This document shows positions 13,885 through 50,600 of a stretch of 64,000 nt of DNA, piece after piece. Within the stretch, counting starts at the first letter, position 1, and every line of letters starts with the position of its first letter. The position numbers and the translations under genes were made by a program. The notes under the pieces were generated by a model. That model was given only the letters and a program-made list of their open reading frames with translations, was not told the origin of the DNA and ran no database searches. The DNA is from an uncultured Chloroflexia bacterium (GTDB lineage: Bacteria; Chloroflexota; Limnocylindria; Limnocylindrales; CSP1-4), in contig CAWEYL010000001.1 in assembly GCA_963813335.1 (NCBI GenBank), positions 192,001 to 256,000 on the forward strand, given 5' to 3'.

Positions 13885-14816
13885 CTCGCGCTCGGCCTCG
13901 GACCCGCGACGCGCGCTCGCGCGATCCCAAACCAGCGGCGCCACGTGGACGGTCGCAGGAAGTCGAACGGGTCGGGCCGGCGGTACAGCCATGGCACGAA
14001 CGCCCAGAGGTAGACGAGGTAGTCGAGGCGGACCGGCCGCGCCCCGAACCCGAAGAGCACCTGGAGCTGGATGATCGTGAGCGGCAGCGTGATGATGCTG
14101 AGCGCGATCGAGACCGCGAGCCAGAGCAGGCCCCATCGCCGCGTCCGCGGCGCGAGGATGAACCAGTGGATGGCCGGGATCCATTTCATCCATGTCGCGA
14201 GGGCCCACAGCAGCCCGCCGAGGCGCGGACCCGTGAATTGGGCGGCCCACAGCATCAGCGTGAGTTGCAGGTTGATGTTGCCGGTATCGAGATTGGCCCC
14301 GAACGGGAACGCCAGCAGCGCGAAGATGACCGCGGTGGTCAGCGGCCGCTGGCGATACGCCCAGTGGATGGTCCAGAGCAGCAGCAGGATCGTGCCGCCG
14401 CGCCACACGAACCAGGCGACGTCCCACGGCAGGATCGCCCACGGCGTGAACAGCGGCAGCATCCACGGGGCGTAGACGTACGGGAGGAACGGGCCTGTCG
14501 GGTGGTAGGCGTCGCCGCCGTTCAGCCAGATGCGGACGGCCGCCCAGTAGGCCCGTGCATCGGCCCCGCCGGGCTCGCCGCGTGCGATGAGACCGGCCGC
14601 GAGCAGCGCGAAGGACAGGCTGAGCAGCAGGATCGCGGCGATGCGCCGCGGGTCGTGGAGCCGCGACCACTCCCGCCGCAGGGCCCGCCGGAAGACGCCG
14701 GCCCGGCGCCTCGTCGGGCGGTCGAGCAGGTCCGAGAGGTCGACCACGATCCGCCCGCGTCCCTGGGCCGAGCCGGGGATCGGGTGAAGACCGGCGGGCT
14801 CCTCCTCATCGGTCAT
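13881..14816 (-). CDS. GT87-like polytopic (GT-C) glycosyltransferase
   Basis: DARAYW, PYVYAPW..PLFTPWAILPW, GNIN, KWIPA patterns with multiple TM helices. Confidence 0.65.
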   Translation of the reverse strand: MTDEEEPAGLHPIPGSAQGRGRIVVDLSDLLDRPTRRRAGVFRRALRREWSRLHDPRRIAAILLLSLSFALLAAGLIARGEPGGADARAYWAAVRIWLNGGDAYHPTGPFLPYVYAPWMLPLFTPWAILPWDVAWFVWRGGTILLLLWTIHWAYRQRPLTTAVIFALLAFPFGANLDTGNINLQLTLMLWAAQFTGPRLGGLLWALATWMKWIPAIHWFILAPRTRRWGLLWLAVSIALSIITLPLTIIQLQVLFGFGARPVRLDYLVYLWAFVPWLYRRPDPFDFLRPSTWRRWFGIARARVAGPRPSAS

Positions 14817-14919
14817 GGCGGGGCGATTCTCGCACGCCCGTTGCGCGGCCCGTCTCGGCGTGCGGACCGGCCGAGAAGGTATCCTCTCCGCCAACCACCG
14901 TCGAAGTGCCAGGAGGCCC

Positions 14920-15756
14920 GTGGCCGAGGGAACCGTCATCATCATCGGCGGCGCCGAGGACAAGGTCCGGGACCGGGTCATCCTCAGCCGGTTCGTGGCG
15001 CTCGCGGGCGGCGTGGACGCCACGATCGCGGTCATCTCCACCGCGTCGTCGCTGGGGCTGGAGGCGGGCGAGCGCTACCGCGAGGTCTTCGGCGAACTGG
15101 GGGTCACGCAGGTCCGGCCGCTGCACGCGGTCACCCGCCCGCAGGCCAACGACGAGTCCGCGGTGCTGGCGGTCCGCGACGCGACCGGCATCTTCCTGAC
15201 CGGCGGCAACCAGCTCCGCCTGTCCTCGACCATCGGCGGGACGCGGCTGGCGGACGCGATCATGGAGCGGTTCCGCCACGGTGCGGTCGTCGCCGGGACC
15301 TCGGCGGGCGCGTCGGCGATGTCCAGCCACATGATCGCGTTCGGGGCGTCCGGGGCGACCCCGAAGCACCGCATGGCCCAGATCTCCGCGGGGCTCGGCG
15401 TGCTCCCCGGCGTCATCGTCGACCAGCACTTCCAGCAGCGCAATCGGCTCGGCCGGCTGCTCAGCCTGATCGCCCAGAACCCGTCCCTCCTGGGGCTCGG
15501 CGTGGACGAGGACACGGCCGGCGTCGTCGGTCCCGATCACATCATGGAGGTCATCGGCCGCGGGTCGATCACGGTGGTCGACGGCGCGCAGTCCGAGACC
15601 GACGCCTGGGAGGTCCATGGCCACCGTCCGCTGATGATCAGCGGGGTCGTGCTGCATTCCCTGCCGGCGGGCTACCGCTTCGACCTGCGCCGCCGCGAGC
15701 GCATCATGACCCCGGCCCTCCACGCCCTGCCCGGCGGCGAGGCCGCGTCGAGCTAG
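14920..15756 (+). CDS. cphB: Cyanophycinase (peptidase S51)
   Basis: IIGGAEDK, FLTGGNQLRL, GTSAGA, DQHFQQRNRLGRL, GVDEDT; AGGAGG RBS. Confidence 0.93.
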   Translation: MAEGTVIIIGGAEDKVRDRVILSRFVALAGGVDATIAVISTASSLGLEAGERYREVFGELGVTQVRPLHAVTRPQANDESAVLAVRDATGIFLTGGNQLRLSSTIGGTRLADAIMERFRHGAVVAGTSAGASAMSSHMIAFGASGATPKHRMAQISAGLGVLPGVIVDQHFQQRNRLGRLLSLIAQNPSLLGLGVDEDTAGVVGPDHIMEVIGRGSITVVDGAQSETDAWEVHGHRPLMISGVVLHSLPAGYRFDLRRRERIMTPALHALPGGEAASS

Positions 15757-15810
15757 GCCGACCGATCCCGTCCGGCCGGGCAGCCGCCCGTGTCGACCAA
15801 GGAGGAACCC

Positions 15811-18669
15811 GTGGCCCAGAGCGCACCAGCGTCGCGCACGAAACGCAGCCCTCGATCGTCGAAGGTGGCGGCGACGGCGGACGCCACGGGGCCGCTGCCG
15901 ACGCTGCGCATCCTCGAGACCCGGGTCCTGCGCGGGCCGAACTACTGGGCGCGCGAGCCGGTCATCCGCATGCTGGTCGACCTCGGCGTCCTCGAGGAGT
16001 ACCCCTCGAGCAAGCTGCCGGGCTTCACGGACGCCCTCGTCGCGCTGATGCCGACGCTCGAGGACCATGCCTGCTCGCTCGGTCGGCGCGGCGGCTTCAT
16101 CACCCGGCTCCGTGACGGGACGTGGGCCGGCCACATCGCCGAGCATGTCGCCCTCGAGTTCCAGAACCTTGCCGGCACGAACGTCCGCCACGGCAAGACC
16201 CGCTCGGCGGGGACCACCGGGCAGTACAACTGCATCTACGAGTACGGCGAGGAGACGGTGGGCCTGGAGGCCGGGCGGATGGCCGTCGGGCTGGTCAACC
16301 ATCTCGTCGCCCCGGACGACCCGGAGGTCTTCTTCGACTTCGCCCCGCAGCTCGAGGCGCTCATCCGGGTGGCCGAGCGGTCGGCGTTCGGCCCCTCGAC
16401 CCAGGCGCTCATCGACGAGGCGGTCAGCCGCGACATCCCGTTCATCCGCCTGGACCGCCACTCGCTGGTCCAGTTCGGGCACGGCGTCCACCAGCAGCGG
16501 ATCCGCGCGACGATGACCTCGAAGACGTCGGCGATCGGGGTCGACATCGCGTCCGACAAGAACCTGACCAACAAGCTGCTCGACTCGGCGGGCCTGCCGG
16601 TGCCGCGCTCCGAGGTGGTGGACACCGAGGAGGCCACCGTCGCCGCGGCGAAGCGGTTCGGCTACCCGTGCGTGGTCAAGCCGCTCGACGGCAACCACGG
16701 CCGCGGCGTCCACCTGGACCTGCGCTCCGAGGAGGCGGTGCGCGCCGCGTTCCACGGGGCCCGTGCCGAGAGCCGTTCGGGTGACCTCGTGGTCGAGACG
16801 TACGTGGCGGGCAACGACTATCGCTGCCTGGTCATCGGCGGCAGGATCGCGGCCATCGCGGAGCGCGTGCCCGCGTCGGTCACCGGCGACGGCGAGCACA
16901 CCGTCCGCCAGCTGGTGGACATCGCCAACGCCGACCCCCGCCGCGGCATCGGGCACGAGAAGGTGCTGACCCGGATCAAGCTGGACGAGGCCGCGGAGGA
17001 CCTCGCGCGCAAGCAGGGCTACGAGCCCGATTCGGTCCCGCCCGAGGGCACGTGGCTCAAGCTGGCGCTGACCGGCAACATGTCGACGGGCGGCACGTCC
17101 ATCGACCGCACCATCGATGCCCACCCCGACAACATCGAGATCGCGGAGACCGCGGCGCAGATCGTCGGCCTCGACGTCGCCGGCATCGACTTCATCTGCC
17201 CGGACATCGCCACCCCGGTCCGCGAGACCGGCGGCGCGATCGTCGAGGTCAACGCGGCGCCCGGCTTCCGGATGCACACCAACCCGACCGAGGGCGAGCC
17301 GCAGTACGTCGCCCGGCCGGTCATCGATTCGCTGTTCCCGCCCGGCGTGTCGGCGCGCATCCCGATCGTGGCGGTGACCGGCACGAACGGCAAGACCACG
17401 ACGGTCCGGATGATCGCCCACATCCTCAAGCTGATGGGCCGGCGGGTCGGCATGACCTCGACCGACGGCATCGTGGTCGACGGCCGGCTGATCAAGAAGG
17501 GCGACATGTCCGGGCCGAAATCGGCCCAGACCGTGCTCCAGAACCCGACCGTGGACACCGCCGTCTTCGAGGTCGCCCGCGGCGGCATCCTGCGCGAGGG
17601 GCTGGGCTACGACCGCAACGACGTCGCGGTGGTGACCAACGTGGCCGGCGACCACCTCGGGCTCGGCGGCATCAACACGATCGGCCAGCTGGCCAACGTC
17701 AAGGGCGTGGTCGTGGAGGCGGTGCCGCGCTCCGGGACCGCGGTCCTCAACGCCGACGACGGCCACGTCTACCGCATGGGCCGCCACTGCGCCGGGCGGG
17801 TCGTGCTCTTCAGCATGTCGACGACGAAGGGCGAGGACGGCTTCGACCGCGTCGACGGGCACACCGGGCGGGGCGGGGCGGCGTTCTGCCTCGAGCCGTC
17901 GGCGGAGGGCGAGCTGATCGTCCTCAAGCTCGGGCCGCGGACGATGCCCGTGCTGTACACGCACCTGATCCCGGCGACGTTCGGCGGTCGGGCCCGGATG
18001 AACGTGGCGAACGCCCTGGCTGCGGCGGCCGCCGCGTGGGCCGCCGGCGCGCACCTGCACGACATCCGCCAGGGCCTGCGGACGTTCTCGACGTCGTTCT
18101 TCCAGGCGCCCGGCCGGCTCAACCTGCTCGACGTCGGCGGGGTGCGGGTCGTCATCGACTACTGCCACAACGTCGACGGGATGCGCCAGCTCGCCGACTT
18201 CGTGACCCGGATGATGGAGGAGACGCAGACGAAGGCCGGGCGGATCGGGGCGGCGAAGGCCGCCCAGCGGAACGGGCGCGCGATCGGCGTGCTCGGCATC
18301 CCCGGCGACCGGCGCGACGCGGACCAGCGCGAGTATGGCGCGATCGCGGCGACCGCCTTCGACGAGATCATCGTCCGCGAGGACAAGAACCTGCGCGGGC
18401 GGGCACCCGGCGAGACGGCGACCAATGTGCTCGACGGCGTGCGCGGGGCCAAGGCGAGCGGCAGCGGGCGCACGACCCGGTCCGACAAGATCCTCGAGGA
18501 GATGGCCGCGGTCCGCGCCGCGCTCCGCCGGGCGATCCCGGGCGACCTGGTCGTGTGCTGCGTCGACGACGCGATCGCCGTCTACCGCGAGGCCACGGCC
18601 GCCGCCGGCACGTCCCGTGGCGGCACGGCGTTCACCGACCCGGGCGAGTGGACCGCGCCCGAGGGCTGA
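15811..18669 (+). CDS. cphA: Cyanophycin synthetase CphA1 (N + ATP-grasp + Mur-ligase domains)
   Basis: LRGPNYW, C-x19-HIAEH, GPST, VKPLDGNHGRGV, NMSTGG, EVNAAPGFRMH, GTNGKTT, EVARGG, DHLG. Confidence 0.95.
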   Translation: MAQSAPASRTKRSPRSSKVAATADATGPLPTLRILETRVLRGPNYWAREPVIRMLVDLGVLEEYPSSKLPGFTDALVALMPTLEDHACSLGRRGGFITRLRDGTWAGHIAEHVALEFQNLAGTNVRHGKTRSAGTTGQYNCIYEYGEETVGLEAGRMAVGLVNHLVAPDDPEVFFDFAPQLEALIRVAERSAFGPSTQALIDEAVSRDIPFIRLDRHSLVQFGHGVHQQRIRATMTSKTSAIGVDIASDKNLTNKLLDSAGLPVPRSEVVDTEEATVAAAKRFGYPCVVKPLDGNHGRGVHLDLRSEEAVRAAFHGARAESRSGDLVVETYVAGNDYRCLVIGGRIAAIAERVPASVTGDGEHTVRQLVDIANADPRRGIGHEKVLTRIKLDEAAEDLARKQGYEPDSVPPEGTWLKLALTGNMSTGGTSIDRTIDAHPDNIEIAETAAQIVGLDVAGIDFICPDIATPVRETGGAIVEVNAAPGFRMHTNPTEGEPQYVARPVIDSLFPPGVSARIPIVAVTGTNGKTTTVRMIAHILKLMGRRVGMTSTDGIVVDGRLIKKGDMSGPKSAQTVLQNPTVDTAVFEVARGGILREGLGYDRNDVAVVTNVAGDHLGLGGINTIGQLANVKGVVVEAVPRSGTAVLNADDGHVYRMGRHCAGRVVLFSMSTTKGEDGFDRVDGHTGRGGAAFCLEPSAEGELIVLKLGPRTMPVLYTHLIPATFGGRARMNVANALAAAAAAWAAGAHLHDIRQGLRTFSTSFFQAPGRLNLLDVGGVRVVIDYCHNVDGMRQLADFVTRMMEETQTKAGRIGAAKAAQRNGRAIGVLGIPGDRRDADQREYGAIAATAFDEIIVREDKNLRGRAPGETATNVLDGVRGAKASGSGRTTRSDKILEEMAAVRAALRRAIPGDLVVCCVDDAIAVYREATAAAGTSRGGTAFTDPGEWTAPEG

Positions 18670-18817
18670 CGCGCCGCCCCGGTTCACCTCCTCCCATCCG
18701 GTTCACCTCCAGTGAACGGATGCATCCTCAAGCGCCCGACCGACCGCATCGAGCCTGCGTACGACCCGCACGGTGTATCGTGCTACTCGTGAGTAGCGTG
18801 TTCGCGGTCCGGAACGT

Positions 18818-19549
18818 ATGACCCGGCTCCCGGATCTGCGGCGGCGGCCGTGGGTCATGCGGATGCGCTGGGTCGACCTGCTGTTCGCACACTGGGCCGT
18901 CGATGCCGATGCCCTGCGCGCGAAGCTGCCGGACGGGCTCGACCTCGACCTGTTCGAGGGGCGCGCCTGGCTCGGCATCGTGCCGTTCGTGATGGAGGAC
19001 GTCGGGCCGCGCGGGCTGCCGGCGCCGCCGGCGGCCGGGCGGTTCCCGGAGCTCAACGTGCGGACCTACGTGCGCCACGAGGGCCGGCCGGGGGTCTGGT
19101 TCCTGAGCCTGGACGCGGCGAGCCGGCCGGCCGTGGAGGGCGCCAGGGCGAGCTTCCATCTGCCGTACTTCCACGCGGCGATGTCGACGGGTCGCGTGCG
19201 CGAGGTGATCGACTACCGCTCGGTCCGGGACGACCAGCGCGGGCCGCCCGCCCGGTTCACGGCGCGCTACCGGGCGACTGGGCCGGTCGAACGAGCGGCG
19301 CCGGGCTCGTTGGAGTCGTGGCTGACGGATCGGATGCGCCTGTTCGCGGCTGACGGGGAGGGGACGATCGCGCGGACCGAGATCATGCACCGACCCTGGC
19401 CGCTGCAACCGGCGGCCGCGCGCATCGAGCGCAACACGATGGCCGAGGCGCACGGCCTGACGCTCTCCGACGAGCCGCCGCACCTGCTGTACTCGGCACG
19501 GCTCGACGTCCGCGCCTGGTGGCCGAAGGTCGACCGGACCGAGGGCTGA
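18818..19549 (+). CDS. YqjF/DUF2071 family protein
   Basis: MRWVDLLFAHW, FPELNVRTYV, GVWFLSLDA, LPYFHAAM, HRPWPLQ. Confidence 0.85.
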   Translation: MTRLPDLRRRPWVMRMRWVDLLFAHWAVDADALRAKLPDGLDLDLFEGRAWLGIVPFVMEDVGPRGLPAPPAAGRFPELNVRTYVRHEGRPGVWFLSLDAASRPAVEGARASFHLPYFHAAMSTGRVREVIDYRSVRDDQRGPPARFTARYRATGPVERAAPGSLESWLTDRMRLFAADGEGTIARTEIMHRPWPLQPAAARIERNTMAEAHGLTLSDEPPHLLYSARLDVRAWWPKVDRTEG

Positions 19550-19564
19550 GCCCGGCGCCTGTCC

Positions 19565-21316
19565 CTACCGCGGCCGACCCTGCAGCCGCGGCACCAGCGT
19601 CGTGAGCTCCGAGGCGATGTCGACCGGCCGCGCCCCCAGCGCGGCCAGCAGCTCGAACACGGCCTCGCGCTCCTCGTGGCACATCAGCACGATGACCCGG
19701 GCATCGCCGCGGCCGCCGGTCGGCCCGTGGCCCGCGGCCCCGTTCAGTTCAGCCCGGAGCGCAGCCGTCTCGGACTCGTAGATCGCGACGTCCGCCGCAT
19801 CCCCGCCGCCGGCGACCACCCCGGCCAGTAGCTCCCCGACGACGGACTCGGCCGACCGCCCGCGGAGGTAGCGGAGGGTCTGCTTGATGGCGACCCGCTG
19901 CGCCCGCTCGGCGGCGATCCGCCCGATGCCGCGCAGCGTGTCGTCCGGCCGGTCGCCGGCCGTGCCGATGATCGCGGTGATCGGGGTGGCGCGACCCGCG
20001 GCCCCCGCGGCGATCCCTTCCGCCACGTCCAGCACGGCCGAGATCCCCGCCTCGTTGTGGGCGAAGTCGACGATGACGATCCGCCCGCCGAGGCGGAACA
20101 GGTTCAGGCGCCCCGGTGAGATGTCGGCGGTCGGCCGGAAGTCGAGGAGGCCATCGCGGACCTGCTCGATCGTGGCGCCGAGCCCGCGCGCCCCGCCGGC
20201 CGCCGCGAGCGCGTTCGCGACGTTGTGGCGGGCCAGCCCGCCGATCGTGATCGGGATCCGGCCGACCTCCGCGATCTCGGTCTCGCGTTCGCCGTCGGCC
20301 TCGATGAGCGTCCCGCGCCGGGCAATGTATGCGCGCCCGCCCCGGGCGCGATGGCGAACGACGATGGGCGACGCCGCGTCGAGCGCGAAGTAGGCGACCT
20401 GCGCGTGCACACGACGGGCGACCGCCGCGACCAGCGGGTCGTCGGCGTTGAGCACCACCCAGCCGTCCGGCTTCGTGATGCGGCAGATGGTCGACTTCAC
20501 CTCGGCCAGCTCGGGGAGGGTGTGGATCCCCTGCAGGTCGAGATGGTCGGACGAGACGTTGGTCAGCACGCTCGCCTCGTTGGATTCGTAGCCGACGCCG
20601 CGCAGGACGATGCCGCCGCGCGCGGTCTCGAGGACGGCGACGTCGATGTCGCGGCGGGCCAGGATCTGCTGCGCGCCGCCCGGGCCGGTCCAGTCGCCAG
20701 GATCGACCATCCGCTCGTCGACGAGGACGCCGTCGGAGGTGGTCATGCCGACGTGCCGGCCGGCGCCCATCAGGATGTGCGCGATCAGTCGCGTGACCGT
20801 GCTCTTGCCGTTCGTCCCCGAGATCGAGACGACCGGCACGTGCCGCTCGGCGTCGTGGATCCAGGACGGCGGGGTCGCCCGCGCCTCGGCGATCCGGTCG
20901 CTCCAGCGCTCCAGCAGCCTGGCCTGGGCGCCGGTGAGGTGGGCATGCCGCGACGGCGAGACGTCCCGATCGGTCAGCGCGAGCGCGGCCTCGGCGATGA
21001 CCTGCGCCCGCTCCGCCCCGCGCCACGGCACCGTGACGATCCAGTGCCCCGGGTCCGACGAGCGGTGGACGCGCAGCCCGCCGGTCCCCTCGCCGTGCTC
21101 GGTCCGCAGGCGGCGCAGCCAGGCCGCCAGCGTCACGATCCCGTACGGCCAGTCGCGGGGCGGCACGGCGGCACCCAGCCGGACGAGCGCATGGCGCGCC
21201 GGGTCGCGCTGGCCGTACCAGGTCCGCCGCCGGCCGATGGCGACCTCGAGCTTGACCACCGGCTCCAGCCGGTAGACGTTGGGCCCCTCGAACAGGCGGG
21301 TCTCGACCAGTCGCAC
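19565..21316 (-). CDS. CphA-like protein with N domain and Mur-ligase domain but no ATP-grasp domain
   Basis: N-terminal ETRLFEGPNVY resembles CphA ETRVLRGPNYW. About 160 aa later come VVSISGTNGKST, TTSDG, LETARGG, TNVSSDHL, VLNADD, HNVANALAA, PGRLN, DFAHN and AGDR. Confidence 0.85.
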   Translation of the reverse strand: MRLVETRLFEGPNVYRLEPVVKLEVAIGRRRTWYGQRDPARHALVRLGAAVPPRDWPYGIVTLAAWLRRLRTEHGEGTGGLRVHRSSDPGHWIVTVPWRGAERAQVIAEAALALTDRDVSPSRHAHLTGAQARLLERWSDRIAEARATPPSWIHDAERHVPVVSISGTNGKSTVTRLIAHILMGAGRHVGMTTSDGVLVDERMVDPGDWTGPGGAQQILARRDIDVAVLETARGGIVLRGVGYESNEASVLTNVSSDHLDLQGIHTLPELAEVKSTICRITKPDGWVVLNADDPLVAAVARRVHAQVAYFALDAASPIVVRHRARGGRAYIARRGTLIEADGERETEIAEVGRIPITIGGLARHNVANALAAAGGARGLGATIEQVRDGLLDFRPTADISPGRLNLFRLGGRIVIVDFAHNEAGISAVLDVAEGIAAGAAGRATPITAIIGTAGDRPDDTLRGIGRIAAERAQRVAIKQTLRYLRGRSAESVVGELLAGVVAGGGDAADVAIYESETAALRAELNGAAGHGPTGGRGDARVIVLMCHEEREAVFELLAALGARPVDIASELTTLVPRLQGRPR

Positions 21317-21349
21317 GGTCCGGGCAGGATAGCAACTAGACTCGGCGCG

Positions 21350-22576
21350 ATGGACGCCCCGACCGCCCTGCCCGACAGCGCGACGCTCGATGCGCTGCGC
21401 ACCGCCATCGATGCCGACCTGCCCGCCTACCTCGCCGATCTCGAGCGGGTCGTGAACATCGACTGCGGGAGCTACACGCCCGAGGGCGTCAACGTCGTCG
21501 GCCGCTGGACCGCCTCGTTCCTCGAGGGGCTCGGTGGACGCGTGGAGACCCGGCCCGACCCGGCCGGCCGGCTGGGAGACACCGTCGTCACGACGTTCGA
21601 CGGCGATCCGGGCGGCCCGCGGGTGCTCCTGATCGGTCACCTCGACACGGTCTTCGACCCGGGGACCGCCGCGGCGCGGCCGTTCCGCATCGCTGACGGC
21701 ATCGCGACCGGCCCCGGCGTCACCGACATGAAGTCCGGGCTCCTCGCCGGGCTCTACGCGCTCAAGGCGATCATCGGCACGACCGGCGGGCTGCCGTTCG
21801 AGCGCCTGACGTTCGTCGCCAACCCGGACGAGGAGATCGGCTCGCCGACCTCGACCCCGCACATCCGGGCGCTCGCCGCGGACGTCGATGCGGCGCTGGT
21901 CCTCGAGTGCGCCCGCGCCAACGGCGACATCGTCTCGTCGCGCAAGGGCATCCGCGACCTGCGCATCGAGGTCAGCGGCCGCGCCGCCCATGCCGGCGTC
22001 GAGCCCGAGAAGGGGCGGAGCGCGATCCTCGAGGCGGCCCGCATCGTCCGCGACCTGCACGATCTGAACGGCCGGTGGCCGGGCGTGACCGTCAACGTCG
22101 GGGTGATCGCCGGCGGCTCGCGCTTCAACGTGGTCCCCGAGCATTGCCGGCTCGATGTCGACGTCCGCGGCGTCGCCCGGGCGGAGCTCGAGGCGGCCGA
22201 GGCGGAGATCCGCCGGATCGCGGCGGCGACCGTCGTCCCGGACACGACGGTCGAGATCCACGCCGACGCCGGCTGGTGGCCGATGGAGAAGCTCGCCCGC
22301 AGCGCCCGGCTCCTCGAGCACGCGCAGGGCGTCGCCGGCGCGCTCGGCTTCGACCTCGGTGACGCCGCGACCGGCGGCGCCTCGGACGCCAACACCACCT
22401 CCGGCATGGGGATCCCCAGCCTCGACGGGCTCGGCCCGATCGGCGGCAACGACCATTCGCCCGCCGAGTACCTCGAGGTCGATTCGATCGTGCCGCGAAC
22501 GACGCTGCTGGCCGGCCTGCTCCTGGCGATCGCCCACGACCCGCAGGTCCTCGCCTGGCGCGACGCCCCGGGATGA
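21350..22576 (+). CDS. M20 family metallopeptidase (carboxypeptidase G2-like)
   Basis: GHLDTVF, GPGVTDMKSG, PDEEIGS, GRAAHAG, GGASDAN, DGLGPIGGNDH...EY. Confidence 0.9.
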   Translation: MDAPTALPDSATLDALRTAIDADLPAYLADLERVVNIDCGSYTPEGVNVVGRWTASFLEGLGGRVETRPDPAGRLGDTVVTTFDGDPGGPRVLLIGHLDTVFDPGTAAARPFRIADGIATGPGVTDMKSGLLAGLYALKAIIGTTGGLPFERLTFVANPDEEIGSPTSTPHIRALAADVDAALVLECARANGDIVSSRKGIRDLRIEVSGRAAHAGVEPEKGRSAILEAARIVRDLHDLNGRWPGVTVNVGVIAGGSRFNVVPEHCRLDVDVRGVARAELEAAEAEIRRIAAATVVPDTTVEIHADAGWWPMEKLARSARLLEHAQGVAGALGFDLGDAATGGASDANTTSGMGIPSLDGLGPIGGNDHSPAEYLEVDSIVPRTTLLAGLLLAIAHDPQVLAWRDAPG

Positions 22577-22962
22577 CGGACCGTCGCCTGATCTCCTCGG
22601 GCGGGCCGCTCGAAGCGGTCGCCGGCTACAGCCGCGCGGTCGTCGTCGGCGACAGCTGCTGGGTCGCCGGCACCACGGATCTCGGCCCGGACGGGCGGTC
22701 GCGCCACCCGGGCGACGTCACGGCGCAGGCGCGGGCGACGCTCGACATCATCGCGGCGGCTCTGGCGGAGGGCGGCTTCCGCCTCGAGGACGTCGTGCGG
22801 ACCCGGATGTACGTCACGGACGTCGCGCTCGCCCGGGACGTCATGGCGGTCCACGGCGAGGTCTTCGGCGCCATCCGGCCGGCGGCCACGCTGGTCGGGG
22901 TCGCGGCACTGGTGGACCCGAGCCTGCTGGTCGAGATCGAGGTCGACGCCCGCCGGGGTTAG
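22573..22962 (+). CDS. RidA/YjgF family protein
   Basis: GYSRAV, AGTT, DVVRTRMYV, IRPAATLV, LVEIEVDA; ATGA coupling to the M20 gene. Confidence 0.9.
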   Translation: MTDRRLISSGGPLEAVAGYSRAVVVGDSCWVAGTTDLGPDGRSRHPGDVTAQARATLDIIAAALAEGGFRLEDVVRTRMYVTDVALARDVMAVHGEVFGAIRPAATLVGVAALVDPSLLVEIEVDARRG

Positions 22963-22965
22963 CCC

Positions 22966-23307
22966 CTAGGGCAGCGCCGCCAGTCCGAGGTTGCGGGCCA
23001 CGACGACCACGATCACCGCGGCGGCGAGCCCGAGGAACAGGTTCTTCCGCCACGCGACCAGGCCGAGGCACACGAAGAGCGCCAGCCACTCCACGCCGAC
23101 ATGGAAGGTGGGACCCGATCCTTCTGACGTCGTGACCATGACGGCGACGGCCGCGAGCGCCGCGAGCACGGCCGGCCCGACCAGCTGGAGGTAATCGAGC
23201 ACGACCTTGGGCAGGCGGTCCATCGCCGGCGCGAGGAGGCCGAGCGCCCGCGAGGGATAGGTCACCGCGAACATCAGGACCGCGAGCCAGACGAGGTTCG
23301 TGCTCAT
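22966..23307 (-). CDS. azlD: AzlD-family membrane protein
   Basis: VTYPSR...PAVLAAL in a small hydrophobic protein immediately downstream of azlC. Confidence 0.75.
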   Translation of the reverse strand: MSTNLVWLAVLMFAVTYPSRALGLLAPAMDRLPKVVLDYLQLVGPAVLAALAAVAVMVTTSEGSGPTFHVGVEWLALFVCLGLVAWRKNLFLGLAAAVIVVVVARNLGLAALP

Positions 23308-24137
23308 CGGTCCGGGGCCTCTCCGTCCGCTGGGGGGCCGGAGGGTTCGGCGGGCGCGTCGGGCCCGAGATGCGTCCCCGGCATCGAGTAGATCTCCGCC
23401 GACGCCTCGGATCCGAGCGGCGCGGTCTCATGGGCGACCCGTGCCGGCACCAGCATCCCGACCAACGGCCCGAGGATGCCGCCGGCGATGATCCCGATCG
23501 ACGCGCTGGTTCCCAGTGCGACCAGGACCGCGATCGCCGCGCCGGCCAGCGCCGCGACGATCTCGCGCCGGCCGGTGATCAGGCCGACCGCCAGCCCGAC
23601 CATCGCGGCCGGGAAGATGATGTCGATGCCGAAGCGGGACGGGTCCGGGATCTGCCCACCGAGCAGCACCCCCGCGAGCGTCGCGAGGTTCCAGGGGATG
23701 AAGGTCACGAGGATGGCCGCGATCCAGTAGCCGCGGGTGTCGGCCCAGCCGAGACGGCGGAAGTGGGCGATGGTCAGCGCGTACGCCTCATCGGTCAGGA
23801 GGTGGGCCATCACGACGCGCCGTCGCCGCGGGACGTCGCGCAGCCACGGGGCCAGCGACGCGGAGTAGAGCAGGTGACGGGCGTTGAGCAGGCCGGTCAG
23901 CAGCACGATGCCGGGCCACGGCAATCCGCCGACGACGTAGCCCACGGCCGCGAACTGGGCTGCCCCGGCGAACGCGATCGTGCTCATCGCCATGGCCTCG
24001 ATCGGCGAGAACCCGGCCTGGCGGGCCGAGAGCCCGTAGACGAACGCGAAGCCGATCGCCGAGACCGCGATGCCGACCCCGTCCGTCGCGAGCCGGCGGC
24101 GGCTCGCCCTGACGTCGGGGCCTGCAGCGACGCTCAG
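23304..24137 (-). CDS. azlC: AzlC-family branched-chain amino acid exporter permease (start approximate)
   Basis: MSTIAFAGAAQF, LLNARHLLYSASL, LTDEAYA, FGIDIIFPA. Confidence 0.85.
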   Translation of the reverse strand: MSVAAGPDVRASRRRLATDGVGIAVSAIGFAFVYGLSARQAGFSPIEAMAMSTIAFAGAAQFAAVGYVVGGLPWPGIVLLTGLLNARHLLYSASLAPWLRDVPRRRRVVMAHLLTDEAYALTIAHFRRLGWADTRGYWIAAILVTFIPWNLATLAGVLLGGQIPDPSRFGIDIIFPAAMVGLAVGLITGRREIVAALAGAAIAVLVALGTSASIGIIAGGILGPLVGMLVPARVAHETAPLGSEASAEIYSMPGTHLGPDAPAEPSGPPADGEAPDR

Positions 24138-24406
24138 CGCAGGAACGTCTTCGCGCAGGTGCCGTCGCAGACCACGAAGACCGCGTGCTTCTCGACCGCG
24201 TACCCCGCGGCGTGGAGCAGACCCGGGCAGCCCGGGGTCGGGCACTTCCAGACCCACCAGCGCTCGTCCTCGCCGAGCGGCGTCGTCTCGGCGGCCAGCG
24301 TCGCCGCGAGGCCCTCGCGCGCGGCCACGAGCGACGCGATCCGGGCGGCGCGCTCGCCATCGGTCTCGCTCGTGTACGGGTAGTTCTGGCTGACGTTCGA
24401 AGTCAC
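24134..24406 (-). CDS. Small hypothetical protein with Zn-ribbon-like Cys pattern
   Basis: About 90 aa; WWVWKCPTPGCPGLLH...VVCDGTCAKTFLR; GGAGG RBS upstream. Confidence 0.65.
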   Translation of the reverse strand: MTSNVSQNYPYTSETDGERAARIASLVAAREGLAATLAAETTPLGEDERWWVWKCPTPGCPGLLHAAGYAVEKHAVFVVCDGTCAKTFLR

Positions 24407-24539
24407 CGGCCCCTCCACGGCCCGCCCATCGGACGGCAAGGCCGGTGGCGGCGTCGTGTGAGCGCAGCCTGCCACCGGCGGAGGCGAGTATCGCATATGG
24501 CGGAAGCGAACCACCGTGACCGCATGGTCCTGGGGCCCG

Positions 24540-26210
24540 TCACCAGACGGCTGGCAGCCCGTCGCTGCGAGGGTCCGTGGCGGCCGCGAGCGACCCGTCC
24601 TGGGCCGCCGGGCCCCCGCGGACCAGTTCGATGGCGTGTTCGTGGCCGAGATTCGGATCGAAGGGCTCGACGAGCGTGACCGGGTGCCCGAGCGCGGTCA
24701 GCGACGGCGCGATCCCGGCCACGTGCCGCGGCTCGAGGCGGACCTCGACCGGCGGATCGAAGTGGGCGAGCGGCTCCACGTACCAGCGCGGCGCGGCGAC
24801 CCCGGTCGCGACGTCGACGCCGCCGTCGACGAGTGCCGACACCAGCTGCGCGTGGATCTGCGGCTGGGCGTCGCCGCCCATCGAGCCGGCGACCACCCAC
24901 GGACCCGGCTGGCCGTCCCGGAACAGCATCCCGGGGAGCAGCGTGTGGAGCGTCCGCTTGCCCGGCGCGAGCACGTTGGCGTGCCCCGGGTCGAGGCTGA
25001 AGTACGACCCGCGGTCCTGGTAGTGGATGCCCGTCAGCGGGTCCATGACGCCCGAACCGAAGCCGCGGTAGTTCGATTCGATGAGGCTGACGGCATTGCC
25101 GGCCGCGTCCACCGTCGCGAGGTAGATCGTGCCGCCGCCGCTCGGGTTCGTGGCGTTCGCGGGGCGTGCCGCGCGTCGCGGGTCGATGCGCGCCGCCAGC
25201 TCGGCGGCGTAGGCCGGGTCGAGCAGCCGATCGACGGGGATGTCGCGGAACGCCGGGTCGGTCAGGTGGGCGTCGCGGTCGGCCATGGCGAGCTTCGCGG
25301 CCTCGATGCCGAGGTGGATCCAGGCCGGGTCGGTGACGCCGTTCGGGCCGAATGCGCTCGCCGGCGGCGGCTCGAGCTGGGCGAGGATCGACAGCAGCTC
25401 CAGGGCGACGATGCCCGAGCTGTTCGGCGGATGGCTGGTGACCCGCGTCCCGCGGTAGTCGATGGCGATCGGCTCGCCCCACGTCGAGGTGTGCCCGCGG
25501 AGGTCGTCGAGGGTCAGGAACGCGCCGATGTCCGCGAAGAGGCGCGCCTGCCGCTCGGCGAGGTCGCCCTCGTAGAACGCGTCGAACCCCTCGTCGACCA
25601 GGGTCTCGAGCGTCCCCGCCAGGGCGGGGAGACGCACCCGCTCGCCGGGGAGCCAGGCGCGACCCAGCGGCCGGCAGACCGCGAAGAACCCGGCCTCCGG
25701 CCCGAGCGTGGTCGCGACGGTCGGGGCGAGCTCCTCGACGGCGTCACTGAACGAGCCCGTCGCCGCGAACCCGTCCCGTGCCAATTCGATCGCTGGACCC
25801 AGGATCGCCGCCCGCGACAGCCGGCCGAAGCGCGCGTGGGCGTCGCCCCACGAGCGGACGGCGCCCGGGACGGTGATCGACAGCGGGCCGCGCGCGGGGA
25901 TCTCCGTCAGGCCGCTCGCCCGCAGGAATGCCGCGTCGGCCCTGGACCCGGCCCGCCCCGATCCGTTGAGGGCGGATTGCCGACCCTCGGCCGCATCCCA
26001 GATCAGCCAGAAGGCGTCGCCGCCGATCCCGCAGCTGCTTGGCTCGACCACGCCCAGGACCGCGTTCGTCGCGATCGCTGCGTCGACCGCGGACCCGCCG
26101 GCGCGCAGGACCCCGAGCCCCGCCGCGGTCGCGAGATGGTTCGGCGCGACCACCGCACCGTGGGTGCCGCGCGCCAGCGGCCAGGGGCCCTGGACGCGAG
26201 CCGTGGTCAC
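24540..26210 (-). CDS. Gamma-glutamyltransferase family protein (Ntn hydrolase)
   Basis: GGSAVDAAIA, GIGGDAF, TVPGAV, PPNSSG, GGTIYL (Thr nucleophile), GFGSG, HTL, MGGDAQPQ, DPRSDG. Confidence 0.9.
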   Translation of the reverse strand: MTTARVQGPWPLARGTHGAVVAPNHLATAAGLGVLRAGGSAVDAAIATNAVLGVVEPSSCGIGGDAFWLIWDAAEGRQSALNGSGRAGSRADAAFLRASGLTEIPARGPLSITVPGAVRSWGDAHARFGRLSRAAILGPAIELARDGFAATGSFSDAVEELAPTVATTLGPEAGFFAVCRPLGRAWLPGERVRLPALAGTLETLVDEGFDAFYEGDLAERQARLFADIGAFLTLDDLRGHTSTWGEPIAIDYRGTRVTSHPPNSSGIVALELLSILAQLEPPPASAFGPNGVTDPAWIHLGIEAAKLAMADRDAHLTDPAFRDIPVDRLLDPAYAAELAARIDPRRAARPANATNPSGGGTIYLATVDAAGNAVSLIESNYRGFGSGVMDPLTGIHYQDRGSYFSLDPGHANVLAPGKRTLHTLLPGMLFRDGQPGPWVVAGSMGGDAQPQIHAQLVSALVDGGVDVATGVAAPRWYVEPLAHFDPPVEVRLEPRHVAGIAPSLTALGHPVTLVEPFDPNLGHEHAIELVRGGPAAQDGSLAAATDPRSDGLPAVW

Positions 26211-27487
26211 GCCGGGTTCGTGCCGATCGACGGGAGCTGGTCGAGCTGATGCTCCTGGGCCCGCAGCCGGGCCAGCGGCACGACGGCGATGCCGAGCAGC
26301 GCGAGCGTCGCGATGAACATGCCGTCGATGCCGAGCCAGTCCGCGGCCACGCCCCCGATCAGGCTCCCGACGATCTGGCCGAGCGCAAGGAAGACCGAGT
26401 ACAGGCCCATGATCGCGCCGCGGTCCGTCGGGAAGCGCTCCGACATGTCGGCGAGCAGCCCGAGTGCGGCGGGCGTCGCACCCGCCAGCACGAACAGCCC
26501 GGCTGCCGCGGCCACGCCCGCGACGATCGCCACGACCGGGGCGGCCATCGCGAGGTGGTTCGTGATCAGGCCGGCGATGACCAGGACCGCGCCGCCGCCG
26601 ACGCCGTAGCCGATGATCGTGGTCCGCCGAAGCGCCTTGAACCGGTTGCCCCAGTACAGCAGGCCGGCCCCGAACACGATGGCGACCGCGATCCCGCCGA
26701 TGATGATCTGGTTCGCCGAGAAGCCCACCATCAGGGCCTGGTCGGGGAACCGCGGGTCGCCCTTGGCCAGCTGGAAGAAGGACTGGCTCAACCAGACGCC
26801 GATCGCGGCGTTGAGCGCGATCCAGGTCGGCGCGAGCAGCCAGACGTGCGAGGTCCGGATCAGGTCGAGGTAGCGGCCGATCCGGACGTGCTCGCCCGCG
26901 ACGGCCTCGGCCTCCCCGGCCGGATCCTGCACGCCGAACCGGTAGATGAGGAACGAGACCCCGTACAGCCCGGCGTTGATGAAGAACGCCGGCTGGCCGA
27001 AGAGCTCGAACAACTTGACGCCCACGATCGCCCCGCCGGCGAGACCGGCGAGCGTCACGCCTTCGAAGCGGGCCGCGGTCTGGCCGCGCAGGAGCTCGTT
27101 CCCTGCCGTCGCGAGGGCGATGAAGCCCAGGATCGAGGGCACGCTGGCCGCGCCCGATGCGCCCTCGAGGATCCGTGTCCCGCCGAGGAGGAACAGGTTC
27201 GTGGTCAGGGCGGTGAGGATCACCGCGATCGCGCCGAAGATCGGGCCGAAGAGCATGACCCGGTGGTGCCCGAGACGGTCCGACAGGACGCCGAAGACCG
27301 GCGAGAGGACGAGCTCGGCGAGATAGAACAGGGCCGCGTAGAGGCCGACCACGAACCCGTCGACCGAGGACCCGCCGTGGTCGGGGAGATGGACGAGGTA
27401 GAACGCCAGCATCGAGCCGGTCAGGCCAGTGCTGAAACGGAGCACGAACGTACCGGCCAGGACGGCCCGGAGGGAGCGTTCCATCAC
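26207..27487 (-). CDS. MFS transporter
   Basis: About 12 TM helices; GVLSDRLGHHR motif A. Confidence 0.85.
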   Translation of the reverse strand: MMERSLRAVLAGTFVLRFSTGLTGSMLAFYLVHLPDHGGSSVDGFVVGLYAALFYLAELVLSPVFGVLSDRLGHHRVMLFGPIFGAIAVILTALTTNLFLLGGTRILEGASGAASVPSILGFIALATAGNELLRGQTAARFEGVTLAGLAGGAIVGVKLFELFGQPAFFINAGLYGVSFLIYRFGVQDPAGEAEAVAGEHVRIGRYLDLIRTSHVWLLAPTWIALNAAIGVWLSQSFFQLAKGDPRFPDQALMVGFSANQIIIGGIAVAIVFGAGLLYWGNRFKALRRTTIIGYGVGGGAVLVIAGLITNHLAMAAPVVAIVAGVAAAAGLFVLAGATPAALGLLADMSERFPTDRGAIMGLYSVFLALGQIVGSLIGGVAADWLGIDGMFIATLALLGIAVVPLARLRAQEHQLDQLPSIGTNPA

Positions 27488-47827: not shown

Positions 47828-48310
47828 ATGGAGGTCATGAAGCAGCTCCGCCAGCGGGCCATCCGGGACCTCGTCGAGCAGCGCCCCATCCGGACCCAGC
47901 AGGAGCTCGCGACCGCGCTGCGCGAGCGCGGGTTCCGCACCACCCAGGCGACCATCAGCCGCGATGTCGCCGAGCTGGGCCTGATCAAGGTCGCGCGCGA
48001 GGGCACCGCCGCCTACGCGCTGCCGCCGCGGCTCATCGAGGCCGAGACGTCCGGCGAGGACCGTCTGCGCAAGCTCCTGTCCGACCTGCCGCTCGAGATC
48101 CACGAGGCCGGGCTGCTGCTCGTCCTGCGCACGCTGCCGGGGTCGGCGCACGCCATCGCCGCCGCGCTCGACCGCGCTCGCTGGCCCGAGGTCGCCGGCT
48201 CCATCGCCGGCGACGACACGCTCTTCGTGGCGCTCCCGGACCGCGGCTCACTGCAGCGCATCAAGCGTCGGCTCCTGCGCCTGTCCGAGGGCGGGCCGCC
48301 GCAGCCTTGA
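47828..48310 (+). CDS. argR: Arginine repressor
   Basis: TQQEL, TQATISRD, GSIAGDDT. Confidence 0.93.
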   Translation: MEVMKQLRQRAIRDLVEQRPIRTQQELATALRERGFRTTQATISRDVAELGLIKVAREGTAAYALPPRLIEAETSGEDRLRKLLSDLPLEIHEAGLLLVLRTLPGSAHAIAAALDRARWPEVAGSIAGDDTLFVALPDRGSLQRIKRRLLRLSEGGPPQP

Positions 48311-48992: not shown

Positions 48993-50600
48993 ATGGACTG
49001 GGCGGACGAACTCGCGGCACAGGTCCGCGATCGCGGACCCCAGGTCGTCAACGACTCGAAGACCCCATCGGGGACGGTCCACGTCGGGAGCCTGCGCGGG
49101 CCGGTCATCCTCGACACGATCACGCGCGCGCTGCGCGCGAACGGCATCGAGACGACGCTCCTCTACGGCGTCGACGACCTCGACCCGATGGACGCCCAGG
49201 CGCTCCTGACGCCCGACGCGGTCGAGCACGAGATGGGTCGCCCGCTGGCGCACGTGCCCGACCAGGCCGGTGACGGCCACGCCTCGTACGCGCGCCACCA
49301 CGCGCAGGTCTTCATCGACGTCTTCGCCGGGCTCGGCATCCACCCCGACCGCTACTACTGGATGAGCGAGATCTACCCCACCGGCGCCATGGACCCGTAC
49401 CTGCGCATCGCGCTCGACAGGGCCGCCGAGGTGCGCGAGATCTACCGCCGCGTCGCCAACGTCCAGCATCCCGATGCGTGGCACCCGGCGGGCGTCATCT
49501 GCCCGAACTGCGGCAAGGTCGGAACGACCATCGTGACCCAGTGGGACGGCGAGCAGGTCTACTACGAGTGCCGCGCACGCCACGTCGAGTGGGCCACCGG
49601 CTGCGGCGCGTCCGGCTGGATCTCGCCGTTCGGCGGCAACGCCAAGCTGCCGTGGAACCTCGAATGGGCCGCCCAATGGTCGCTGTTCGGCGTGACCATC
49701 GAGCCGTGCGGCAAGGACCTCTCGACCGCGGGCGGGTCGCGCGACCGCAGCGATGCCATCGCCCGCGAGATCTACGAGCGCGAGCCACCGCTCAACGTGC
49801 CCTACGAGTTCCTCAACATCGGCGGCAAGAAGATGTCGACGTCCAAGGGCCGCGGCGCGGCCGCCCACACCATCGCCGAGGTCATCCCGCCGGAGCAGCT
49901 CCGCTTCCTGTTCCTGCGTCCGAAGCCCAACCACGCGATCGAATTCGATCCCGACGGGACCGACCAGATCCCGCGCCTCTTCGACGAGTTCGACAAGTTC
50001 GCGGCGGCGACCGCGGGCCGCGAGGTCAAGGGCGAGCTGCCGCCCGGATATGCGGCGACGTTCCGCTACTCGCTGCTGGACCCCGGTGCGGACGTGGCCG
50101 CCGAAGCCGCCGCGTTCCGTCCCGCGTTCTCGCATCTCGCGCTGCTGGCCCAGGTCCCCGGCGTGGATGTCGCCGCACGCGTCGAGGCGGAGAAGGGGAG
50201 TGCGCTCGACGATCGGGAACGCGCGATCCTGGGCGAACGCGTCGCGGCCGCCCGTGCCTGGCTCGACGCCTACGCGCCGGAGCGATCGCTCGTGCGGGTC
50301 CACGAGACGATCCCGGCCGAGACGACGGACCTCGGCCCGACCGAGCGCCGCTTCCTCGCATCGCTGGCCGACGCGGCATCGGATGCGCGGCTCGAGACCG
50401 GCGATGCCTGGCAGGACGCCATCTTCCGCACGGCCGCCGCGACGGACCTGGAGCCGAGGGGAGCGTTCACCGCCCTCTATCTCGCGTTCCTCGGCCGATC
50501 CAACGGCCCGCGAGCCGGCTGGCTCCTGGCCAGCCTCGATATGGCGTTCGTGATCGACCGCCTGCGTGACGCCGGCCGGATCGGCGAGGTCGTGGCATGA
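48993..50600 (+). CDS. lysS: Class I lysyl-tRNA synthetase
   Basis: MDWADE, TPSGTVHVGSL, KLPW, EPCGKD, YEF, KMSTSKG, GPRAG. Confidence 0.92.
   Translation: MDWADELAAQVRDRGPQVVNDSKTPSGTVHVGSLRGPVILDTITRALRANGIETTLLYGVDDLDPMDAQALLTPDAVEHEMGRPLAHVPDQAGDGHASYARHHAQVFIDVFAGLGIHPDRYYWMSEIYPTGAMDPYLRIALDRAAEVREIYRRVANVQHPDAWHPAGVICPNCGKVGTTIVTQWDGEQVYYECRARHVEWATGCGASGWISPFGGNAKLPWNLEWAAQWSLFGVTIEPCGKDLSTAGGSRDRSDAIAREIYEREPPLNVPYEFLNIGGKKMSTSKGRGAAAHTIAEVIPPEQLRFLFLRPKPNHAIEFDPDGTDQIPRLFDEFDKFAAATAGREVKGELPPGYAATFRYSLLDPGADVAAEAAAFRPAFSHLALLAQVPGVDVAARVEAEKGSALDDRERAILGERVAAARAWLDAYAPERSLVRVHETIPAETTDLGPTERRFLASLADAASDARLETGDAWQDAIFRTAAATDLEPRGAFTALYLAFLGRSNGPRAGWLLASLDMAFVIDRLRDAGRIGEVVA

Follow-up and report, generated by a model that had tools for sequence, protein, structure and literature searches.

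Cyanophycin is studied for its part in nitrogen storage and because it can supply biodegradable polyamides, and to our knowledge all of its synthesis proceeds through CphA1 or CphA2, of which the latter is a reduced derivative of the former. In CphA1, an ATP-grasp domain lengthens the poly-Asp backbone, and the N and Mur-type M domains jointly make up the station for Arg addition. Structures of CphA1 come from Synechocystis (PDB 7LG5 and 7LGJ) and Trichodesmium (7WAE). The CphA1 N domain is described as forming part of the polymer-binding site (PMC9427784), a hydrophobic loop of this domain is reported to touch the Mur-type M domain, and a Cx19HxxEH site is reported for 83% of CphA1 enzymes (PMC9262961). 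CphA2 is reported to comprise an N domain, an active ATP-grasp (G) domain, and a truncated, inactive M domain (PMC10273328). Here we examine a minus-strand gene in a 64,000-nucleotide (nt) stretch of DNA from an uncultured Chloroflexia bacterium (contig CAWEYL010000001.1; hereafter, the window) that encodes a CphA-like protein with an N domain and an M domain (N+M) and no G domain. We propose with moderate confidence, from sequence comparison, that this protein is a functional enzyme rather than a remnant, namely a free-standing ATP-dependent ligase that would add an amino acid to the Asp side chains of cyanophycin-type substrates.

Pfam assigns two domains to the protein, Mur_ligase_M (Mcore) and Mur_ligase_C (Mlid), both above cut-off and together placing it in the Mur ligase superfamily. 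No ATP-grasp family and no PF18921 is matched by Pfam anywhere in the protein, and residues 1–155 have no Pfam match even at E ≤ 10. A sequence-only reading of the window had described a CphA-like start that jumps directly to a Mur ligase. The N-plus-Mur-only content is confirmed, as the GTNGKST, ETARGG, and DH motifs are intact and both an ATP-grasp match and an HxxEH motif are absent, but the N-terminal part proves to be a whole domain of ~155 amino acids (aa). BLASTP aligns residues 1–39 with residues 39–77 of CphA1 at 33% identity (E = 8e-5), and profile–profile comparison with hhalign of 47 family N regions against 14 CphA1 N domains gives a probability of 97.1% (E = 5.4e-11) over 120 columns. 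This likeness is beyond chance and marks the region, at the level of profiles, as a CphA-type N domain. The HxxEH helix of CphA1 aligns by hhalign to residues 58–73, where there are no His, Glu, or metal ligands, and HxxEH is absent from residues 1–200, leaving the protein without the Cx19HxxEH primer-generating site. The protein is nonetheless predicted to retain both halves of the CphA1 substrate site, N and M.

Profile scores separate the protein from the other Mur-type ligases with which it shares an ATP-dependent acyl-phosphate ligase fold (Mur_ligase_M plus Mur_ligase_C in MurE, FolC, PgsB, and CapB). TIGR02068 scores 382.6 bits, over profile positions 474–838 only and below its cut-off of 850, with no G domain detected. 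The best MurC/D/E/F model in NCBIfam is MurE NF001126 at 109.5 bits (cut-off 373), the rest being lower, while FolC reaches 42.6 (cut-off 162.65) and PgsB 27.2 (cut-off 222.7). Membership in FolC, MurE, or PgsB was rejected because all of these scores fall far below cut-off; in addition, the N part is CphA-type and MurE behaves as an outgroup in the trees described below. The TIGR02068 and MurE scores and the top structural matches likewise speak against grouping the protein with FolC/MurE-type ligases.

An AlphaFold2 model computed from a 52-sequence alignment has a predicted local distance difference test (pLDDT) score of 90.7 and a predicted template-modeling (pTM) score of 0.91, with weak segments at residues 33–36, 528–535, and 581–583. 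In the PDB, the four top-ranking matches to the model are all CphA1 chains, with query-normalized template-modeling (TM) scores of 0.74–0.76, in alignments of 896–899 columns that run from the N domain through the M domain and skip G. The best MurE structure match is 0.53. The predicted N–M arrangement is consistent with that of CphA1.

The residues expected of an active M domain are retained. Fourteen positions (G167, N169, K171, T173, R176, D208, E230, R233, N253, D257, H258, K274, N368, and R403) are invariant in 52 diverse members of the family, and H420, D455-R456, and R485-G486-R487 are nearly invariant; the lid carries GDR at 454–456 and YLRGR at 483–487. The roles of Lys, Thr, Glu, Arg, and His residues in ATP and Mg binding by TeCphA1 have been described (PMC9427784), and the invariant residues of the family would correspond to these by motif. 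E230, the sole invariant Glu in the family alignment, is the putative Mg-binding residue. The D257-H258 pair is equivalent to D585/H586 of SuCphA1, where the double Ala mutant has an inactive M domain (PMC9262961). With both P-loop and D-H pair in place, the Mur-type M domain is complete; of the 73 M-domain columns with conservation of 90% or more among 16 CphA1s, it matches 62 exactly. Relative to CphA1, then, the N domain is homologous and the M domain is closest by both sequence (E = 2.5e-74) and fold, with the P-loop, Mg-binding Glu, D-H pair, lid Arg/His, GDR, and RGR all kept; unlike CphA1, the protein lacks G and Cx19HxxEH, and its M domain falls outside the CphA1 clade.

These same residues bear on whether the protein might instead be a non-catalytic subunit or regulator in hetero-oligomers with CphA1, a suggestion of the sequence-only reading. 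The two proteins have N and M modules in common and their genes lie close together, but ATP/Mg-binding and catalytic residues that are invariant in 52 members, along with purifying selection, form the pattern of an enzyme, making a regulator very unlikely; in CphA2, by contrast, the inactive M domain is truncated (PMC10273328). Like CphA2, the N+M protein is a reduced CphA1 relative with one active site. Unlike CphA2, it has no G domain and its M domain is full-length and intact, which sets it outside the CphA2 type. Its description in the sequence-only reading as the mirror image of CphA2 is apt for domain content and fails for evolution, since the lineage most likely never had a G domain (see below).

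Ligation to a cyanophycin-type Asp side chain is the best-supported reaction because the N + Mcore + Mlid unit is kept and its catalytic residues are intact. In the proposed mechanism, ATP would bind at the P-loop through K171, with E230 as the Mg-binding Glu, and a carboxylate, presumably that of a cyanophycin-like substrate, would be phosphorylated to an acyl-phosphate. Attack on the acyl-phosphate by the α-amino group of an amino acid placed by Mlid would then produce an isopeptide bond. The enzyme would act in trans alongside CphA1 and cyanophycinase, where its candidate roles on the polymer are the completion or filling of bare Asp residues, repair, priming, or a different decoration. Without a G domain, backbone synthesis by this protein is not expected.

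Arg is a possible amine substrate. The lid loop of CphA1 has the conserved form (K/R)-E-D-x-D-(L/K)-R-G-R, whereas the N+M protein reads K-Q-T-L-R-Y-L-R-G-R, without the acidic pair and with an extra Tyr; other N+M clades read x-x-x-(R/K)-Y-L-R-G-R, likewise one residue longer and lacking the acidic pair. As the loop preceding RGR differs from that of CphA1, an amine other than Arg is also possible. The equivalent region of MurE presumably carries the motif that selects the amino acid, and if this is right, N+M enzymes may by analogy use a non-Arg amine.

The gene at the location given by the sequence-only reading is real. It spans 21316..19565 on the minus strand, with a GTG start at 21316, a stop codon at 19565–19567, and a product of 583 aa. 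The surrounding open frame extends upstream to 22537, but third-position GC indicates minus-strand coding only from 19580 to ~21290, with the pattern shifting at ~21300–21380 and a plus-strand gene beyond. Homologs start at an identical MRLVETRL, and longer database entries (712 and 715 aa) were called from farther upstream and include this start internally. The third-position GC pattern, the start of the neighboring M20 gene at 21350, and the homolog starts together identify the GTG at 21316 as the real start. Ratios of nonsynonymous to synonymous substitution rates (dN/dS) against orthologs are 0.115 (locus L001), 0.111 (L002), 0.20 (L003), and 0.19 (L010), with 0.23 for L030 in a shorter alignment containing an indel. 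The gene is under purifying selection (dN/dS 0.11–0.20).

Given these ratios, the idea that the gene is an artifact, a mis-assembled or decaying cphA minus its ATP-grasp region, is hardly credible. We rejected it because the best 120 homologs listed, from many assemblies, and many 50%-identity clusters have the same architecture, a result that also disposes of an assembly deletion of the ATP-grasp region. The M domain, moreover, lies outside the CphA1 clade and is only 39% identical to that of the neighboring cphA1.

The family to which the protein belongs is large. A word-indexed protein search gave 5910 matches among 8000 scored; the best 120 are 71–93% identical over 99–100% of the query and 581–715 aa long, mostly 585–587, and are named “cyanophycin synthetase” by one source and “Mur ligase family protein” by another. 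An exhaustive search of 1.84 billion cluster representatives yielded 10365 matches at E ≤ 1e-3, of which 1236 reach E ≤ 1e-30; many are ~520–600 aa long, aligned over their full length at 36–44% identity, and distributed over many 50%-identity clusters. Pfam scans of 49 of these relatives found Mur_ligase_M in 49, Mur_ligase_C in 48, and PF18921 above cut-off in four; no ATP-grasp domain exceeded its cut-off in these 49, and weak remnants appeared in two. Relatives named “Mur ligase family protein” come from Nocardioides, Acidobacteriota, Actinomycetota, and Limnocylindria, and other names include “DUF4938 domain-containing protein [Herpetosiphonaceae]”. One of the 49 scanned relatives, P0219, matches DUF4938 (PF16292) above cut-off at 102 bits, and “DUF4938 domain-containing protein” is the name given to its close relatives. 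Our protein has the length, architecture, and N-terminal R-x-L-x-G-P-N motif of these DUF4938 and “Mur ligase family protein” sequences and aligns with them over the full length at 30–44% identity; unlike the DUF4938 set, it is not matched by the PF16292 profile at E ≤ 0.01, and it forms its own Chloroflexota clade. Sequence comparison thus outlines a large, uncharacterized N+M family that spans Chloroflexota, Actinomycetota, Acidobacteriota, and Pseudomonadota, whose traits (~520–600 aa, an N-terminal RxLxGPN, CphA-like N followed by Mur M and C, and a position outside the CphA1 clade) the window protein displays. No study of an N+M CphA-like enzyme was found in the literature searched, and the term “CphA3” returned only an unrelated resistance-gene paper.

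Two M-domain trees place the protein outside CphA1. In the first, of 75 M domains, all 14 CphA1s fall in a single clade (Shimodaira–Hasegawa-like approximate likelihood-ratio support 99) with 11 short proteins among them, and the remaining 50 N+M proteins are distributed over four clades outside it; the window protein groups with Chloroflexota (Limnocylindria-type) sequences in a clade of its own (support 100). The second tree, of 64 rows with four MurE outgroups, left out the PF18921-type short proteins, frame-shifted-looking rows, and two outgroups whose P-loop was missed by the pattern. Here CphA1 (16 rows) is again a single clade (support 95), and the 44 rows of N+M proteins fall in a polytomy at the base, with support of only 55 for a single clade. 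With a single MurE outgroup the root is placed inside the N+M proteins, a position that differs from the four-outgroup polytomy. As the position of the root shifts with the outgroups used, the history is argued from CphA1 monophyly and parsimony only: given a monophyletic CphA1 and an outgroup that lacks an ATP-grasp domain, the most parsimonious history under either topology has G gained once, on the stem of CphA1. On these grounds the lineage of the window protein most likely never had an ATP-grasp domain, and the N+M family is probably older than CphA1, a pre-CphA1 scaffold rather than CphA1 minus G. The sequence-only reading had taken the gene for a paralog of the local cphA, which 39% M-domain identity and a separate, old family outside the CphA1 clade do not support; recent duplication of the local cphA1 is rejected by that identity and the separate clades.

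The 11 short proteins (533–653 aa; P0205, P0216, P0221, P0222, P0244, P0249, P0251, P0252, P0263, P0266, and P0270) occur at several places inside the CphA1 clade, and PF18921 or weak remnants of ATP-grasp turned up in those scanned by Pfam. Repeated secondary loss of most of G may account for them, or they may be fragmentary metagenome gene models. A 622-aa protein encoded on Legionella adelaidensis plasmid NZ_LR134428.1 (L083:7323-9191) has a PF18921 N domain with Cx19HxxEH and Mur M and C domains, with ~95 residues in place of the G domain. Its gene opens an operon that also encodes cyanophycinase and isoaspartyl peptidase, and there is no cphA1 within 8 kb. With its M domain nested in the CphA1 clade, it is best described, on tree position, as a different and secondary G-less form.

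Gene order ties the family to cyanophycin genes. A genome scan returned 468 relatives, of which the best 80 loci were kept, all on contigs of Chloroflexota-type metagenome-assembled genomes (MAGs), and synteny was assessed by tblastn of the window genes against these 80 loci. cphA1 lies within 10 kb in 50 of the 53 loci that have the full 10-kb downstream flank (47 single good matches, the gene in pieces in L001 and L078, and truncated at the locus end in L052). In the 80 loci there are 59 good cphA1 matches, every one convergent with the N+M gene, at distances of 29–8403 nt (median 1033 nt). Because every one of the 80 loci is from one clade, the Chloroflexota linkage alone is weak evidence. 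As evidence independent of these loci, tblastn recovered full-length N+M genes on four plasmid records, one each from Roseateles and Shinella and two from Ruegeria. In all four, cyanophycinase, cphA, and N+M follow one another in this order on one strand, with 13–14 nt between cphA and N+M, and the plasmid N+M proteins belong to a separate clade of the family with the signature “RRLTGPN”. In the loci examined, relatives are neighbors of cphA1, in 50 of 53 cases in Chloroflexota and four of four on plasmids. Many plasmid cphA genes have no N+M partner.

Several side observations concern these loci. MAG MFD09368.bin.2.48 contains two copies of the block (contigs L002 and L009), with N+M proteins 92% and 80% identical to that of the window and each with its own M20, RidA, cphA1, and cyanophycinase genes, which could be either a cluster duplication or two mixed strains. 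Loci L022 and L049, labeled Patescibacteria / Saccharimonadales, have 76% identical N+M genes in the same synteny and are probably mis-binned Chloroflexota contigs. On a plasmid of Deinococcus sp. KNUC1210 (L086:4684-7183), two genes come after a cluster of cphA, isoaspartyl peptidase, and cyanophycinase genes: one for a “Mur ligase family protein” of 693 aa and one for a “cyanophycin synthetase” fragment of 144 aa, together probably a second CphA-like gene split in two. A Ralstonia wenshanensis plasmid (L087) bears a tandem pair of full-length cphA genes.

A number of points weigh against a role on cyanophycin. Three of the 53 loci (L031, L035, and L080) have no cphA1 within 10 kb, and the link to the M20 metallopeptidase gene is tighter: of the 73 loci with 1.4 kb or more of upstream sequence, 71 have this gene divergent from the N+M gene and no more than 600 nt away, and the M20/RidA divergent pair is kept in these 71. 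Since the N+M gene of the window is convergent with cphA1, the two are not co-transcribed, and common descent rather than selection may account for the Chloroflexota synteny. Because the Roseateles and Shinella islands are nearly the same, the plasmids represent about two independent lineages. Both the M domain and the Cx19HxxEH site are intact in the local CphA1, so it is not obvious why a second enzyme that adds Arg would be needed. Within the lid, the acidic pair of CphA1 is replaced (Asp to T480), and the CphA1 Glu at position 491 is Ser (S491). The literature searched holds no biochemical data on any N+M member. A DUF4938 protein of Pseudomonas putida A514, likened to ours by family name only, is reported to have no effect on peroxidase secretion when knocked out (PMC13592688), and another report says that Pseudomonas is without cyanophycin synthesis genes (PMC9974463).

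Several of these points fit the main alternative, a tentative one that is possible though less than probable, in which the protein is a Mur-type amide ligase of a non-cyanophycin pathway, its product (a small peptide or amino-acid conjugate) being dismantled by the divergent M20 hydrolase (with RidA), and the cphA1 synteny is inherited. The tight M20 link, the convergent orientation and variable distance of cphA1, the amino-acid genes around the locus (AzlCD, gamma-glutamyltransferase, and MFS), a lid loop unlike that of CphA1, and the breadth of the N+M family all favor such an enzyme. It is harder to reconcile with another N+M clade being operonic with cphB–cphA on all four proteobacterial plasmids, with no M20 gene nearby, or with the CphA-type N domain and the 62 of 73 identical M positions. 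Even a ligase unrelated to cyanophycin would represent a large ATP-dependent family without a known substrate.

The CphA1 enzymes encoded beside N+M genes inform two further ideas. We considered whether the N+M protein compensates for a CphA1 with a dead M domain and rejected this, as the CphA1s of the window, Roseateles, and Ruegeria keep the D-H pair, ARGG, and P-loop. Nor was an association with primer-dependent CphA1 seen, since Cx19HxxEH is present in the window CphA1 and HxxEH in those of Roseateles, Ruegeria, and Shinella. The first steps of CphA1 (Asp + Arg to β-Asp-Arg) are reported to be very slow, and the minimal primer to be (β-Asp-Arg)-Asp (PMC9262961). A starter enzyme that makes β-Asp-Arg or a similar dipeptide from free amino acids, and so speeds CphA1 to this primer, would draw on the chemistry of the M domain and would agree with the linkage to cphA1. 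We regard it as quite unlikely: an N domain for polymer tethering would be superfluous with free Asp, and as the partner CphA1s keep the HxxEH site, a dedicated primer maker is not obviously needed.

A ligase acting on cyanophycin side chains, the reading we prefer, would be a widespread third type of enzyme beside CphA1 and CphA2; it would offer a new view of polymer composition and initiation and a tool to tailor side chains, and would explain the thousands of genes that one annotation source labels “cyanophycin synthetase” although their products are unable to make a backbone. The tree has a bearing, too, on the origin of CphA1 as a Mur-type N+M ligase that gained an ATP-grasp domain. An unlikely extension of both ideas is that N+M is the ancestral scaffold, into which ATP-grasp was later inserted to give CphA1, and that it now works in trans on the product of CphA1, its different lid loop serving to add a non-Arg amino acid to free Asp side chains or to fill bare ones; natural cyanophycin in these organisms would then be a two-enzyme, mixed-side-chain polymer.

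Features of the locus are listed in Table 1. The sequence-only reading had placed the gene downstream of cphA and did not mention the DUF2071 gene between them; the N+M gene in fact lies on the opposite strand to the plus-strand cphA1, toward which it is convergent, and 33 nt separate it from the divergent M20 gene. The window cphA1 encodes all of its domains (N with Cx19HxxEH, ATP-grasp G, and Mur M plus C), and its true start may lie some codons 3′ of 15790. The DUF2071 gene ends 15 nt from the stop of the N+M gene, and 29 of the 80 related loci have a homolog of it. The window shows no dipeptidase of the iaaA, iadA, or cphZ type, and for this reason the M20 enzyme may, speculatively, be the missing β-Asp-Arg dipeptidase. 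A promoter and terminator scan of 18600–21600 found no element, and an Rfam scan of the whole window found a single tRNA and nothing else.

Table 1. Coordinates of the N+M gene, its domains and motifs, and neighboring genes in the window
Feature	Position	Strand	Evidence or remark
Cyanophycinase (cphB-type, peptidase S51)	14815-15756	+	TIGR02069 263.2 bits (cut-off 126.6); Pfam S51
cphA1, full-length	15790-18669	+	TIGR02068 1120.5 bits (cut-off 850); Pfam domains; Cx19HxxEH motif
DUF2071 gene	18818-19549	+	Pfam 247.7 bits; between cphA1 and the N+M gene
N+M gene	19565..21316	-	Frame plot, homolog starts, dN/dS
N domain, residues 1-155	20852..21316	-	hhalign to CphA1 N domains; no Cx19HxxEH
Mcore, Mur_ligase_M, residues 165-374	20195..20824	-	Pfam 77.8 bits (cut-off 24)
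P-loop GTNGKST, residues 167-173	20798..20818	-	K171 equivalent to Lys499 of TeCphA1 by motif alignment
ETARGG, residues 230-235	20612..20629	-	E230 putatively equivalent to Glu558 of TeCphA1
D257-H258	20543..20548	-	Equivalent to SuCphA1 D585-H586 by alignment offset
Mlid, Mur_ligase_C, residues 402-530	19727..20113	-	Pfam 31.8 bits (cut-off 28.4)
Loop KQTLRY-LRGR, residues 478-487	19856..19885	-	Candidate amine-specificity loop
M20 metallopeptidase, glutamate-carboxypeptidase-like	21350-22576	+	Pfam; NF004788 292.9 bits, below cut-off 349
RidA-family gene	22573-22962	+	Pfam Ribonuc_L-PSP; overlaps M20 gene end
AzlD, AzlC, gamma-glutamyltransferase, MFS	22966-27487	-	Pfam

The G+C content of the window is ~73%, and its closest relatives are Chloroflexota MAG contigs labeled Limnocylindrales or “Chloroflexia”. 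An ArgR-type arginine repressor (47828–48310, +) and a class I lysyl-tRNA synthetase (48993–50600, +) lie ~26–30 kb from the cyanophycin genes. Anthranilate synthase component I is distributed over two open reading frames (ORFs; 55359–56396 and 56452–56979, +), the first comprising Anth_synt_I_N and the start of Chorismate_bind and the second the remaining Chorismate_bind, which could reflect a frameshift, a misassembly, or a truly divided gene. Farther along, a 949-aa ORF (58744–61593, +) joins indole-3-glycerol-phosphate synthase, phosphoribosylanthranilate (PRA) isomerase, and a tryptophan-synthase-beta-like PALP domain in a TrpC-TrpF-TrpB fusion, which sits in a trp operon with trpG, trpD, and trpA.

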